Of a DNA stretch of 64,000 nucleotides, positions 8,215 through 34,145 are shown piece after piece (within the stretch, counting starts at the first letter, position 1; each line of letters opens with the position of its first letter). A model generated the notes under the pieces. That model searched no databases, was not told the origin of the DNA, and saw only the letters and a program-made list of their open reading frames with translations. The DNA is from Minisyncoccota bacterium (GTDB lineage: Bacteria; Patescibacteriota; Minisyncoccia; Phycocordibacterales; VMEP01), in NCBI GenBank assembly GCA_041659085.1, contig JBAZYZ010000001.1, positions 4,884 through 68,883 of the forward strand, given 5' to 3'. The position numbers and the translations under genes are program-made.

Positions 8215-8377
8215 CGCTCTCTGTTTGACCCTGTGGCAGATTTTGGCGATGCGCCATGATGGTGTTGTTGATTTAGCGGTATTTATCTGTGAGTTTTACT
8301 ACCTTGTTTTTGGACATATTTCCGAGTGTTTTAAAGCCTTTCCGCCAAAGTTTACCGCGGGGTTGACATCGCTTTTC
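8215..8377. repeat. intergenic palindromic repeat element, copy B
   Basis: TTGAC-ccctgtggcagattttggcgatgcgcc ... ccgccaaagtttaccgcgggg-TTGAC; arms inverted; flanking TTGAC pentamers as in copy C. Confidence 0.5.
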
Positions 8378-8704: not shown

Positions 8705-12378
<3,674 letters not shown>

Positions 12379-12473
12379 CATTGCAAAAATACAATTAAAA
12401 AGAGTCGCGGAAAAAATTCCGCGCCTCGCACAAGCGCGTGACGCGCGTTTATGCGAGGCGCGAAAGTGTTTTG

Positions 12474-12549
12474 GGGTCTGTAGCTCAGTTGGGAGAGCGC
12501 TACGATGGCATCGTAGAGGTCACCGGTTCGATCCCGGTCGGGTCCACCA
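12474..12549 (+). tRNA. tRNA-Ala (anticodon GGC), CCA encoded
   Basis: Manual cloverleaf: acceptor gggtctg/cgggtcc with G3:U70; anticodon loop atGGCat; T-loop ttcgatc. Confidence 0.8.
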
Positions 12550-12593
12550 AAACATTTTTCGCCTCAAAGTTCGTCCCCGGCGAAAGTCGGCGA

Positions 12594-12666
12594 GTGGCCA
12601 TAGCTCAGCCTGGCAGAGCATCGGGCTCATACCCCAATGTCCTTGGTTCAAATCCAAGTGGCTACT
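12594..12666 (+). tRNA. tRNA-Met (anticodon CAU; elongator Met or Ile-lysidine type)
   Basis: acceptor gtggcca/tggctac; anticodon loop ctCATac; T-arm cttgg-ttcaaat-ccaag; one C-A mismatch in the anticodon stem; no encoded CCA. Confidence 0.65.
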
Positions 12667-12698
12667 CGGTTTAGATTTTTAAAAAAGTCGGGGTGTAG

Positions 12699-12772
12699 CT
12701 CAGCCCGGTAGAGCGTCTCCTCGGGGAGGAGAATGTCGGGGGTTCGAATCCCTTCACCGCGACCCGCCCGAA
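12699..12772 (+). tRNA. tRNA-Pro (anticodon GGG)
   Basis: C1-G72 pair typical of tRNA-Pro; anticodon stem tctcc/ggaga with loop tcGGGga; T-loop ttcgaat; one acceptor mismatch at 3:70. Confidence 0.6.
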
Positions 12773-12852
12773 CGGATTCATCCGGTAGGGCCACAGTTCT
12801 TTGTTTTATTTTTTTAACTCATTTTCGCGCAACTTAGCGCGTGATTGAGTGT

Positions 12853-12970
12853 CTTGTTCTGGTGATTTAATACAAGGGTCACACCTCTTCCCATTCCGAA
12901 CAGAGTCGTTAAGCCTTGCTATCGCGATGATACTCCTTGCGGGGAAAGTAGCTATCGCCAGAACAAGATA
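12853..12970 (+). rRNA. rrf: 5S ribosomal RNA
   Basis: helix I tcttgttctggtg / cgccagaacaaga; conserved cccattccgaacagag and gcggggaaagtag blocks. Confidence 0.75.
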
Positions 12971-21643: not shown

Positions 21644-21740
21644 AGAAGCGACAGTCCCGTAGTGAACCGGGCTTGTAGAGGTTCTACTACTTTGATTTCA
21701 AGGGGGGGGGGTAGGGTTGATTTTCTCAATAAATAAGCTT

Positions 21741-21773: not shown

Positions 21774-21801
21774 TTGACTTACGTTTCTCACCGAGTATAC
21801 T
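21774..21801 (+). promoter_or_regulatory. sigma70-type promoter for the stand-alone 16S rRNA gene
   Basis: TTGACT (21774-21779), 16-nt spacer, TATACT (21796-21801); ~320 nt upstream of the 16S 5' end. Confidence 0.5.
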
Positions 21802-22123
21802 AGTGAAGCGTCTAGAGGTAGACGGCTTTTAATTTGTAATTGCCCGATACTTTCTGGAACGTGTGAACTTTGACAAGATCCATAGTGCCCGATGGCTTGA
21901 ATAACCGTCGGGTAGAAAGGATCCACATAGTTAGTGCAAAATCACAACTCCGCCGGAGACAGCCTGTCTCTGGTGGTTAAAAAAATTCCAGTTTTAATCG
22001 AGTAGATTAAATTGGGACAAAGAAACCCGCCTCGTTTTTTACAAAACGATTCGGGCAGGTATTTTTTCTTTTGTTCCGCCTAATAATTTTTCGAAATTTT
22101 AATTTCACAAAATTTTCATTTAG

Positions 22124-23650
<1,527 letters not shown>

Positions 23651-23884
23651 ATTGAAAATGTTCGAGATTTATTTCGAATTCTTGGCCGGTGTTTATGCTT
23701 CACAAGGGCATAAATGGGTAATTATTGCCAAAACCCTAATTCGCAATACATTGCTCTGGATGTACCAGAGCAGAAAACCTAGCGTGGGAACGCAAAGGTT
23801 GGACGGAACAAAAGAAAGAATATTAACCCGCCTAAATTTTTGCGAACAAAAATTTTGGTGGGTAAGCACTAACTATAAGTCATC

Positions 23885-23915
23885 AAAAAAACGCCCTAAA
23901 TGGGGCGTTTTTTGA
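23885..23915 (+). terminator. rho-independent terminator ~240 nt after 16S
   Basis: aaaaaaacgccctaaatggggcgttttttg. Confidence 0.7.
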
Positions 23916-23940
23916 TGGGTGGATAGTGGTATTGACCCTG

Positions 23941-24017
23941 TAGTAGATTTTGGCACTGCGCCAAGAGGCGCGGGCATAGCCAGTGCCAAAATTCACTACG
24001 GGGTTGACTTTTTAGCC
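23941..24017. repeat. intergenic palindromic repeat element, copy C (best-preserved copy)
   Basis: TTGAC-cctgtagtagattttggcactgcgcc ...25 nt... cagtgccaaaattcactacgggg-TTGAC; ~23-bp inverted arms with identical flanking TTGAC pentamers. Confidence 0.6.
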
Positions 24018-24060
24018 GAAAGGTGCTTTAATTAAGGAAGGTCAACAACAGGAGATTGAT

Positions 24061-24325
24061 TATGATGTATCAAGGTCATCCGTTTACACAAGGGTTGCCG
24101 ACTGGCGTACAGCGAGTCATACAGAGCCTGATGGGGGTCGTCAGCCTGGTCGTCGTCGTTGTCCTTGTCGTCTTTATGGTCAAGGACTTAAAGAGCAAGC
24201 TCGATGCTCCCCAAGTCTACGTCTCCAATTCAACGGGGGAATGCGTGAAAGTTGTTTCGCCAAAGGGCGAGCAGCCATGCAAGCCAGGAGACGAAAGGAA
24301 ATATGAGCGTGTCTGGGTGAAGTAG
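24061..24325 (+). CDS. small membrane protein (one TM helix, Cys-containing C-terminal ectodomain), hypothetical
   Basis: caggag SD 8 nt upstream of the ATG at 24061; 'VVSLVVVVVLVVFMV' TM helix; C-terminal '...GECVKVVSPKGEQPCKPG'; GC elevated (~50%) relative to neighbours. Confidence 0.5.
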
Positions 24326-24346
24326 CTCACCTACGCTCAAGCAACA

Positions 24347-24373
24347 AAATGGGCCGGGTTCGTAATGAACCCG
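24347..24373. terminator. bidirectional hairpin terminator shared by convergent genes
   Basis: gggccgggttcgtaatgaacccggccc. Confidence 0.65.
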
Positions 24374-24381
24374 GCCCTTTC

Positions 24382-24741
24382 CTATTGTCTCGGCGCTCTT
24401 TGCAGCCGGTCGTTCAAAATCTCGTTTAGGACGCCGCGTAATTTGCGTCCCAGGCGGCCGCTTTCGAATTTCGTTTCCAGGTGCGCCAGAACGCTAGACA
24501 GCGTTTGGAGCCTGGTTGTCCCGAGTCTGCCCGCTTGGCGCAGCTTTTCCAGCTTCTTCAGTTCCAATATGAATCGTTCCTGGTCGGATGATTTGAGAGA
24601 TATCATCCAGTGGGTGTCCTTCTGCACCCTTTCTTTGTCTGATAATCTGCCGGCCCTGACTTCGCCGCGCTTCGTGTTCCTTGTGGTCATTTGCCCCATA
24701 CGCGCCGGAACCGCAGATTTCATTACCAGTATTCTGCACAT
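24382..24741 (-). CDS. small basic protein (119 aa, Arg/Lys-rich), hypothetical
   Basis: strong GGAGGA SD 9 nt upstream of the ATG on the minus strand; the opposite-strand ORF is S/P/R/L-rich junk; stop abuts the hairpin terminator. Confidence 0.55.
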   Translation of the reverse strand: MCRILVMKSAVPARMGQMTTRNTKRGEVRAGRLSDKERVQKDTHWMISLKSSDQERFILELKKLEKLRQAGRLGTTRLQTLSSVLAHLETKFESGRLGRKLRGVLNEILNDRLQRAPRQ

Positions 24742-24885
24742 TGTTTGTTATCCTCCGTTAGTTGAACATATTGCACCCGTACTGCCTGTTTAAGATGCTA
24801 GCATAACCCGAAAAGTTTAAGCAATACATTGCTGAAAGACCGGTTTTTTGCTACATTTGCATTGTTCTATAGGGTTTCGAGGGTG

Positions 24886-24925
24886 TAGTTCCCCTGTGGC
24901 AGGGCAAAGCTCACTACGGGGCAGG
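24886..24925. repeat. degenerate palindromic repeat element, copy D
   Basis: cccctgtggcagggcaaagctcactacgggg; shares the CCCyGTrG / CACTACGGGG termini of the family. Confidence 0.4.
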
Positions 24926-24962
24926 CAGTACGATGAAACATCATATATAATTTATTTCCTGC

Positions 24963-33438: not shown

Positions 33439-33584
33439 CTTTTTGGTTTATCCCCAAAAACTATTGACCGCCATTACCCGTGTGGTAACATTTAAATAGT
33501 CGCTGCTTCACGATATTAAGCGGCTAAACGCTCTTCCCCTCGGCATTTTTGTGAGGGACAAACTCAATAGAAGAAGGAGACTAT

Positions 33585-33986
33585 ATGAAACGCAACAAAC
33601 TGTTGTCCCTCGCGTTGGTAGCTCTGGCAATCAGCGTCGGCGCCTCCAGCGTATTCGCAGCCTCGAATCCGACCGTCGGCGGCGTCGATCAAGCGACCAC
33701 CACCAAGACTTTCACCAACCCGGCGCCCGTGGCTGCGGGTACCAACACCGGCGCGCGCGAGGCCGTGGCCAGTCCGACCGTCAACGTGAAGCCGGCAGCA
33801 GCGACCATCAGCGCGCAGAAAGCGACCACCGCCAGCGCCAAGGACCAGATCGCCGCCAAGGCCGTCTCGCTCGATTCGGCAACCGCCACCGCCACCGCTG
33901 CGGTCAATGCCGGCCTCGTTCTCGCCGTCGCGCATACGGTCGACGCCTCCGCCAACCCGGCAGCAATGGTACCGCTGCTGAACTGA
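33585..33986 (+). CDS. secreted Ala/Thr-rich low-complexity protein encoded in a GC-rich (~64%) segment
   Basis: AAGGAG SD 6 nt before the ATG; signal peptide MKRNKLLSLALVALAISVGASSVFA|A; GC3-rich codons (gcc/acc/ggc/gtc) contrast with flanking ~40% GC. Confidence 0.65.
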   Translation: MKRNKLLSLALVALAISVGASSVFAASNPTVGGVDQATTTKTFTNPAPVAAGTNTGAREAVASPTVNVKPAAATISAQKATTASAKDQIAAKAVSLDSATATATAAVNAGLVLAVAHTVDASANPAAMVPLLN

Positions 33987-34014
33987 GCTTTCTGTTCTAG
34001 GGTCTTACGGCCCA

Positions 34015-34038
34015 ACCCCCCTCTTCGGAGGGGATTTT
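34015..34038 (+). terminator. rho-independent terminator
   Basis: cccccctcttcggaggggattttt. Confidence 0.7.
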
Positions 34039-34145
34039 TGTTTTGTGCTAACAATATTTTCATATATACTTTTAAAATAGACGCGAGGAGCTAGAAATCA
34101 GAAGTTGGGTAATCTAACTTCCGATTTCTAACCTCTAATTTCCAA

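Follow-up and report, generated by a model that had tools for sequence, protein, structure and literature searches.

Two independently distributed small genes in a conserved yet turnover-prone spacer between the 16S rRNA and tRNA-Ile genes of a Candidatus Paceibacterota genome

Autonomous units consisting of a promoter, a gene and a terminator, and deviant in GC content, are known from lambdoid phages as morons. A strong Shine-Dalgarno (SD)-like motif in an SD-poor genome is known from the Bacteroidia, in which rpsU keeps such a motif and the anti-SD of the 16S rRNA is retained. Both precedents bear on the segment described here, which occupies positions 23930-24940 of a 64,000-nucleotide stretch of DNA (hereafter the window) from a metagenome-assembled genome (MAG) of Candidatus Paceibacterota, within the candidate phyla radiation (CPR)/Parcubacteria. 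It lies between the 16S rRNA and tRNA-Ile genes and carries two convergent small genes, encoding proteins of 87 and 119 amino acids (aa), which a first-pass annotation had taken for a possible acquired cassette such as a toxin/immunity pair. The underlying observation was real, but the cassette and toxin readings proved largely wrong; the spacer is conserved yet turnover-prone and holds two orphan genes. We favor, with a probability of roughly 0.55, the reading that the segment consists of two independent monocistronic accessory units within a variable spacer that runs from the 16S terminator to tRNA-Ile. Both genes are coding and under purifying selection, their anatomy and synteny are evident from comparison with relatives, and they are independent of each other.

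In base composition the segment was found to stand out as had been claimed, with 50.6% GC, at the 96th percentile of 1011-nt windows, compared to 44.5% over the window in full, while its two-gene core (24062-24741) reached 53.2% (98.7th percentile) and the immediate flanks lay at 40-43%. At third codon positions the GC content (GC3) of the + strand gene was 0.636 and that of the - strand gene 0.650; no other member of a set of 49 open reading frames (ORFs), made up of the two genes and 47 reference ORFs (mean 0.476, standard deviation 0.058), reached these values, and both genes are compositional outliers. The codon log-odds of the 87-aa gene was the lowest in the window (z = -5.1, a value inflated by the short length of the gene). 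Each gene is preceded by an SD-like motif of a kind that is, as first proposed, otherwise rare: an SD 5-mer was present in only one of the 47 other ORFs and an SD 4-mer in four, although these counts are approximate because starts were taken as those of the longest ORF. The features of the two units are listed below, the loci of relatives being designated L001, L002 and so on.

24004-24032, + strand: promoter of the small-gene slot, TTGACT, 17 nt, TTTAAT, with the same hexamers and spacing in L003, L014, L017, L018 and L023
24050-24054, + strand: SD-like AGGAG, 7 nt ahead of the ATG of the 87-aa gene and kept upstream of the L003, L014, L017 and L018 orthologues
24062-24325, + strand: 87-aa gene, encoding a transmembrane (TM) helix and, C-terminal to it, a domain of roughly 40 aa that contains two conserved Cys (PQVYVSNSTGECVKVV...C...KYERVWVK)
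24351-24377, both strands: hairpin terminator of the two convergent genes, with a stem of 11-12 bp including 9 G-C pairs
24741-24382, - strand: 119-aa gene, with orthologues in L001 (66%), L023 (67%) and L002 (48%)
24756-24751, - strand: SD-like GGAGGA, 9 nt ahead of the ATG of the 119-aa gene; GGAGGA in L002, GGGGGA in L001 and L023
24795-24832, - strand: promoter of the 119-aa gene, with extended -10 TGnTAGCAT (24803-24795) and -35 TTGCTT (24824-24819), conserved in 4/4 loci
24821-24832, strand not applicable: second copy of the palindrome GCAATACATTGC, overlapping the -35 of the 119-aa gene
23743-23754, strand not applicable: first copy of the palindrome GCAATACATTGC, in the 16S 3' trailer; L023 has GCAATACCTTGC at the same place
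24848-24875, + strand: tRNA-type promoter TTGCTA, 16 nt, TAGGGT, from the alignment of the window, L002 and L023; directly precedes tRNA-Ile in L002
24965-25037, + strand: intact tRNA-Ile(GAT) gene (ARAGORN; Rfam 71.9 bits), with TATAAT at 24946-24951

The + strand product had been described as an 88-aa, Cys-containing protein with a single TM segment. The Cys residues (Cys61 and Cys73) and the single TM segment (residues 22-40, KD19 = 3.05, following a short N-terminus) stand, but its length is 87 aa from the ATG or 89 aa from an upstream TTG; its database record reads MAG hypothetical protein WC835_00135 [Candidatus Paceibacterota bacterium]. Scans against Pfam, NCBIfam, PHROGs and PADLOC returned only phrog_8293 and phrog_14626, the former with an E value of 4.2e-13 for residues 26-87 against profile positions 10-75 of 75. 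In an alignment of 36 family sequences, built on a TM anchor followed by P.VYVSNSTGxCVKV...C..LP.KY..VWVK, S55 and Y81 were invariant and C61 and C73 nearly so. The family was present in 52 phage records, from Pseudomonas, Stenotrophomonas, Janthinobacterium and Sphaerotilus phages. In the early region of phage LKO4 its member follows the primase gene, and in a T4-like contig (L019) the family ORF sits among small early genes near gp32. An AlphaFold2 (AF2) model of the 87-aa protein shows a helix (residues 14-47) and four strands, and in Foldseek (BFVD) this model matched the uncharacterised PaMx11 and LKO4 proteins with a probability of 1.0 and template-modelling scores of 0.66-0.79. The protein is probably membrane-anchored with a small two-Cys beta domain, in a predicted N-in/C-out topology, and by analogy with small membrane proteins from phage early regions it may be an accessory envelope protein of phage origin, acting for example in surface masking or superinfection exclusion. 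Its gene is not located in a phage or prophage, as the neighbors are 16S, tRNA-Ile, a DUF975-like gene, FolD and MurD and no phage genes were found nearby.

Orthologues of the 87-aa gene occupy related but variable surroundings. In L003/L004 the orthologue, an 84-aa gene, is followed by a terminator and then by tRNA-Ile-DUF975-MurI-Mur ligase, in L008 and L017 tRNA-Ile comes directly after the orthologue's terminator, and in L014 an extra stretch of about 290 nt lies between the orthologue unit and the tRNA. The DUF975-like gene accompanies tRNA-Ile in L014 and L017 as well. L018 has frr downstream instead of the tRNA and a ribonucleotide reductase gene upstream, the latter being also found upstream of the 84-aa gene in L003 and L017. 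The 16S gene was not near any orthologue locus of these relatives (in L003, none within 10 kb), and the proposal that the segment splits an ancestral 16S-tRNA-Ile linkage was therefore not borne out, the gene and tRNA-Ile of L003 and L017 lying behind the reductase gene instead. No trace of the 119-aa gene was detected by tblastn at any of these loci, L003, L014, L017 and L018 among them.

The compositional anomaly was shared by these relatives. In L003, a genome of 38% GC, the 84-aa orthologue has a GC3 of 0.635, whereas the other genes lie at 0.24-0.34 apart from one at 0.50, and the orthologue is the single gene out of 18 with an SD-like motif. In the C-terminal domain, 35 of 41 residues are identical between the window and L003, with synonymous differences in 20 of those 35 codons; between orthologues, synonymous change has come close to saturation, yet GC3 has stayed at about 0.63. 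As the L003 orthologue retains the anomaly through long divergence, the GC3 and SD features belong to the 87-aa family and do not mark a fresh import. They could alternatively reflect high expression, the two being ordinary native genes with GC3 set by translational codon bias and a purine-rich leader that is incidental. Their strong sigma-70-like promoters and terminators beside stable-RNA genes, together with their conservation under purifying selection, are consistent with this. However, the ribosomal protein genes uL10 and bL12 of the window have a GC3 of only 0.50-0.52 and A/T-rich leaders without SD, GroES/GroEL in L003 have 0.25/0.31 against 0.635 for the 84-aa gene, and the low codon log-odds of the 87-aa gene, even if inflated by shortness, points the other way, so that codon bias of this kind is an unlikely explanation.

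The first-pass cassette was most directly addressed by L023, the 16S of which is 89-95% identical to that of the window and its SecF gene 83% identical at the nucleotide level. In window orientation this locus reads SecF, 16S, the same terminator, the same promoter, GGAAGGAG, a 70-aa ORF, the same bidirectional terminator, a 120-aa orthologue of the 119-aa gene and a conserved intergenic region. The 70-aa ORF (L023 524-736, - strand, with GGAAGGAG) encodes a single-TM protein with a GC3 of 0.676 but has no similarity to the 87-aa protein, the slot ORF having been exchanged between the -10 box and a point about 18 nt beyond the stop codon. Because L023 has the same order of SecF, 16S, small gene and 119-aa gene, the layout is old and inherited, with the 119-aa gene a part of it; and because L003-type loci lack the 119-aa gene while L023 carries an unrelated slot ORF, the two genes have separate distributions. 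The shared hairpin was confirmed as terminator-like on both strands. It is part of the 119-aa module, since the identical sequence recurs in L023 and L001, whereas in L003, L014 and L017 the 84-aa gene is followed by another terminator.

A single imported two-gene cassette, working as a toxin/immunity pair or as a membrane peptide with its partner, would account for the compositional anomaly, the SD-like motif and the one terminator common to both genes, and for the position of the 119-aa gene opposite a small single-TM gene in both the window and L023. It is nevertheless very unlikely. At least four relatives (L003, L014, L017 and L018) have a member of the 87-aa family but no 119-aa gene, and the ORF that takes its place in L023 is no homologue of it. 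The two genes converge and are not co-transcribed, each having its own conserved promoter with a hairpin terminator between them, and the co-occurrence across genomes that characterizes a toxin-antitoxin pair was not seen. No similarity to a toxin, immunity or defence family was detected, as PADLOC returned nothing and Pfam and NCBIfam nothing above cut-off, the TsiR match (E = 0.072) being far below its own. Nor was any acquisition recent, given a layout common to L023, a number of synonymous substitutions per site (dS) near saturation and a GC3 maintained at about 0.63. Of the initial claims concerning presence and absence, variability of the spacer thus survives, the 119-aa module being absent from L003, L014 and L017, whereas a cassette gained or lost as one unit does not.

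On the favored reading of two independent units, the first would be a fixed expression slot, made up of the TTGACT-17-TTTAAT promoter, a purine-rich SD-like leader, a short ORF that can be exchanged, and a terminator. The second would be the 119-aa module, comprising its own terminator, its gene and a compact region of divergent promoters from which tRNA-Ile is also transcribed, and it was probably inherited together with the tRNA-Ile promoter.

The 119-aa protein is Arg/Lys-rich, as first described (17 R and 10 K, isoelectric point 11.4), and has a conserved basic N-terminus, MCRILV...P.R.GQ..TRNT, which is predicted to be disordered and is followed by a predicted four-helix bundle, with an AF2 predicted local distance difference test (pLDDT) score above 90 for residues 35-115. 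Its family shows a ratio of nonsynonymous to synonymous substitution rates (dN/dS) of 0.20-0.30 with saturated dS. A word-seeded search covering 5.8 billion proteins, together with a full HMMER run of the family profile against 1.84 billion representatives, yielded only four real members, or five where the window's own copy is counted in addition to them; the profile search contributed a single additional one, P0008, which led to L023. Two further candidates were rejected, P0009 as a repeat-protein artefact and L012, from a metagenome scan, as a chance match (37% over 54 aa) overlapping a real gene in another frame. No match was found in phage or plasmid collections by tblastn, and scans of Pfam, NCBIfam, PHROGs and PADLOC returned nothing. 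A helix-turn-helix (HTH) or other DNA-binding domain was likewise not detected, no Pfam HTH family reaching E < 1 and fold searches giving generic helical matches. A HEPN identity was considered on account of an Rx5H motif at R38-H44 and discarded, as H44 is E in L002 and the motif lies in the first helix, and RnpA, of similar size and basicity and with an RN motif, was discarded because the predicted fold is all-helical. An antisense 142-aa ORF (24365-24793, + strand) is interrupted by stops in L001 and L002 and was not accepted as a gene.

The 119-aa gene is divergent from tRNA-Ile in the window, L001 and L002, the L023 contig ending at the tRNA promoter, and this promoter, TTGCTA-16-TA(G/A)GGT, is common to the window, L002 and L023. 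In the conserved intergenic region of all four 119-aa loci, the palindrome GCAATGTATTGC overlaps the -35. The form GCAATACATTGC occurs exactly twice in the 64-kb window, against 0.03 occurrences expected. From the charge of the protein and the position and conservation of the palindrome, we infer that the 119-aa protein would be a nucleic-acid binder at GCAATACATTGC and an autoregulator, the palindrome acting as a putative operator; an effect on the divergent tRNA promoter may follow from the same arrangement. Separately, the 11-nt CAGGCAGTACG was found in the conserved 5' leader of the 119-aa gene (24778-24788, - strand) and as an inverted copy at 24922-24932 (+ strand) after repeat D, described below, with a chance expectation of roughly 0.02 for the pair within a 224-nt stretch.

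That neither ORF is a gene, and that the GC-rich segment is a structured non-coding RNA or a spacer of the rRNA/tRNA transcription units, would agree with its position between stable-RNA genes and with the 87-aa messenger RNA (mRNA) region folding somewhat better than shuffled sequence (z = -3.4 in the window and -2.8 in L003, only a hint). This explanation is barely credible, as it is contradicted by dN/dS and by protein-level conservation alongside many synonymous changes, the phage family profiles match, Rfam gave no match within the two-gene segment, a terminator separates the segment from 16S, and the fold of the 119-aa region was not significant (z = -1.4).

The first-pass annotation had also seen the segment as delimited by two repeat copies, C and D. 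The following features lie at its borders or belong to the same repeats.

8230-8362, strand not applicable: repeat A, 133 nt, fold z = -4.3, with TTGAC on both sides (8225-8367), the 3' TTGAC being the -35 of the 23S promoter
23937-24003, strand not applicable: repeat C, a 67-nt hairpin resembling a miniature inverted-repeat transposable element (MITE), -47.2 kcal/mol, z = -6.96, with TTGAC at 23932-23936 and 24004-24008
24879-24891, + strand: pseudo-tRNA-Ile 5' fragment GAGGGTGTAGTTC, 13 nt (repeat D20), to the end of which a collinear blastn match with L002 extends
24892-24921, strand not applicable: repeat D, a 30-nt internally deleted A/C copy, its left 11 nt from A and its right 11 nt from C, fold not significant (z = -0.6)

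Repeats C and D do lie on either side of the segment, but neither marks the end of a unit, D being only the 30-nt deleted copy. Repeat C has arms of 24 nt that are 88% complementary and is related to copy A (28/32 nt), its 3' TTGAC serves as the -35 box in the promoter of the 87-aa gene, and L023 has an empty site at this position, with a single TTGAC and no insert. The marks by which MITEs are recognized were thus all found, namely inverted repeats at the termini, duplication of the target site and a relative with the empty site, and the hairpin element appears to insert at -35 boxes and to regenerate them. A further candidate copy, repeat B (about 21655-21695), was rejected, having only an 11-nt match and no significant fold.

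Repeat D adjoins the 13-nt pseudo-tRNA fragment, which has two mismatches to the tRNA 5' end and lies 73 nt upstream of the intact tRNA, at the near border of the 119-aa module. In its acceptor allele the fragment is similar to L002 (GCGGGTG), the resident tRNA-Ile having GCGCGTG/CACGCGC. On the left, homology with L003, L014 and L017 past the 87-aa stop codon ends at about 24342 (CGCTCAA), and from about 24348, terminator included, the sequence follows L023 and L001. This left edge, together with the end of the L002 collinearity, defines the 119-aa module as about 24345-24891 (about 545 nt) with a tRNA 5' scar; the module is present in L023, L001 and L002. The 13-nt foreign-allele fragment shows that recombination or duplication has occurred at the tRNA 5' end in the past, and the 5' flank of tRNA-Ile is a recombination hot spot in this clade.

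Two observations in relatives concern the same flank. In L017 (5290-5518) the native promoter is followed by a pseudo 5' half of tRNA-Ile, which lies about 78 nt ahead of the intact tRNA-Ile and is interrupted by two small ACCCG...CGGGT hairpins of 33 and 36 nt. In L001 the 120-aa gene and tRNA-Ile are separated by an inserted ORF of 230 aa (89-781, - strand), which combines an HTH at the N-terminus with a motif, GLMLYLGEGDK, that looks like LAGLIDADG; Pfam recognized only the HTH, and the ORF may be a free-standing homing endonuclease.

Such findings raise the possibility that the 119-aa module is what is left of, or was carried as cargo by, a small selfish element, integrative or of homing type, that targets the tRNA-Ile 5' end, with the protein serving its mobility or maintenance. 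The module adjoins tRNA-Ile in the window, L001 and L002, its edge carries the foreign-allele fragment, the tRNA-Ile 5' half is duplicated and disrupted in L017, the L001 ORF was inserted at the same place, and the gene is both absent from L003, L014 and L017 and extremely rare as a family. This alternative is nonetheless doubtful. No integrase was found at the island border, where only the two small ORFs lie between 16S and tRNA and neither is recombinase-like, and no integrase, transposase or nuclease motif was seen in or near the 119-aa protein. Purifying selection acts on the protein, its synteny extends over a 16S distance of about 5-11%, the duplicated piece is a 13-nt 5' end whereas known tRNA-integrating islands have 3'-end repeats, and the phage and plasmid collections contained no match.

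Some points weigh against the favored reading of two independent accessory units. The 119-aa gene faces a small single-TM gene in 2/2 loci with the far side visible (the window and L023), and there may be a functional link between the small-TM-gene position and the 119-aa gene. The beta domain of the 87-aa model is of only moderate confidence (pLDDT 57-68). Finally, the reading leaves a GC3 of 0.63-0.80 and an AGGAG-type motif in genomes without anti-SD unaccounted for.

This last point concerns the 16S gene itself, for which the following features were identified.

22115-23652, + strand: 16S rRNA gene (Rfam RF00177, 1348 bits)
22060-22083 and 23799-23822, strand not applicable: arms of the pre-16S processing stem, closing the 16S unit ahead of its terminator
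23884-23915, + strand: intrinsic terminator of the 16S unit, AAAAAACGCCC-TAAAT-GGGGCGTTTTTT (repeat family D1 and inverted repeat I1), 92% identical in L023

In a 3'-end alignment the 16S gene ends in GGAUUAAUUCAAAU (23640-23652) where the consensus has GGAUCACCUCCUUU, and it therefore has no anti-SD; CCTCC was not found in the 170-nt 16S trailer either. The L023 16S (3' end about 1099-1120) likewise lacks an anti-SD, so that CCUCC, the mark of SD-led initiation, is missing from the 16S 3' tail of both organisms. Loss of the anti-SD has been reported for about half of Parcubacteria (PMC9297842). In the literature consulted on this loss, no description was found of exceptions such as SD-bearing, GC3-rich small genes. 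Because the organism's 16S has no anti-SD, pairing of the SD-like motif with the 16S tail cannot be the mechanism by which the motif acts.

A third stand-alone unit was observed elsewhere in the window (33465-34045), with the promoter TTGACC...TTTAAAT and a terminator at about 34015-34045. Its gene (33585-33986) encodes a 133-aa, Ala/Thr-rich protein with a signal peptide and has AGGAG 5 nt ahead of the ATG, a GC content of 0.667 and a GC3 of 0.80, the window maximum; the protein had no Pfam match and no match by tblastn, which was run against the phage collection only. As this unit is of the same kind, the GC-rich island is not unique in the window. We tentatively propose, as a conjecture with the odds clearly against it, that anti-SD-less Parcubacteria keep a minority class of small stand-alone genes in fixed promoter/terminator slots with exchanged ORFs, in which selection maintains the AGGAG-type leader and G/C-rich codons. 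Its members may include the 87-aa, 119-aa and 133-aa genes, the L023 70-aa ORF and the L003 84-aa gene, all encoding membrane, secreted or basic proteins.

The wider setting is that of unlinked rRNA genes. A cluster of 23S, tRNA-Ala(GGC), tRNA-Met, tRNA-Pro and 5S lies at 8716-12963, and 16S follows 9 kb downstream of it on the same strand, behind secD/secF, with its own terminator and its own promoter (TTGACT...TATACT at about 21775-21802). The 23S rRNA gene (8716-12368) is 3653 nt long compared to a 2925-nt model, with about 730 nt of insertions that possibly represent a CPR-type intervening sequence, and a 104-aa ORF lies on the - strand (11520-11834) within its span. Downstream of tRNA-Ile are the gene for a DUF975-like membrane protein, tRNA-Leu, FolD and a Mur ligase (MurD); a genome scan with the DUF975-like neighbor as query found no relatives.

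Lineage-specific accessory genes in a variable tRNA-adjacent spacer are ordinary for a CPR genome, but particular features of this one lend themselves to further work. The 119-aa family is among the rarest detectable and is tied to the tRNA-Ile promoter, so that its role is directly testable by binding assays. SD-like motifs and high GC3 in the absence of an anti-SD provide a natural setting in which to test cleanly what these motifs do when they cannot pair with 16S, and the -35-box hairpin element, together with ORF swapping in a fixed slot, bears on how very small genomes turn over accessory genes. If the minority class proposed above exists, the purine-rich motif and GC-rich mRNA would serve an anti-SD-independent role, in translation control or mRNA stability, or else phages or host bacteria that use SDs would supply such genes in a continuous flux. 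On the same condition, the 119-aa protein would represent a small regulator of a new type, coupled to the promoter of a stable RNA.

Among known systems, the phrog_8293/phrog_14626 proteins, such as Pseudomonas phage LKO4 gp28 and the PaMx11 protein, resemble the 87-aa protein in having an N-terminal TM anchor and a C-terminal VYVSNSTGxCVKV...C...KY..VWV. Unlike the phrog_8293 phage members, however, the 87-aa gene is chromosomal in a CPR bacterium, has no phage genes around it, encodes a longer N-terminus and is syntenic with tRNA-Ile in several relatives. As in tRNA-adjacent islets, the DNA flanking the tRNA is variable (106 nt in L003, about 400 nt in L014 and about 640 nt in the window) and a partial tRNA copy lies at the border, but here there is no integrase, the duplicate is a 13-nt 5' end instead of a 3' end, and the tRNA promoter is itself part of the module, which has a single gene. 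Repeats A, C and D recall MITEs and elements of the repetitive extragenic palindromic (REP) type in their inverted repeats, stable hairpin, 5-bp duplication, empty site in a relative and deleted copy, yet they differ from MITEs in their low number, three or four in 64 kb, in having no known transposase partner and in the exact placement of both full copies on a TTGAC -35 box. As with rpsU in the Bacteroidia, a few genes have a strong SD-like motif in a genome otherwise without them; in contrast to the Bacteroidia, the 16S of the window organism and of L023 has no anti-SD. Finally, each unit resembles a moron in possessing a sigma-70-type promoter, one short ORF, an intrinsic terminator and a deviant composition, in its small membrane or secreted cargo and in a slot ORF that differs between relatives, and departs from one in lying outside any prophage and in a composition that is not recent but has been kept over long divergence.

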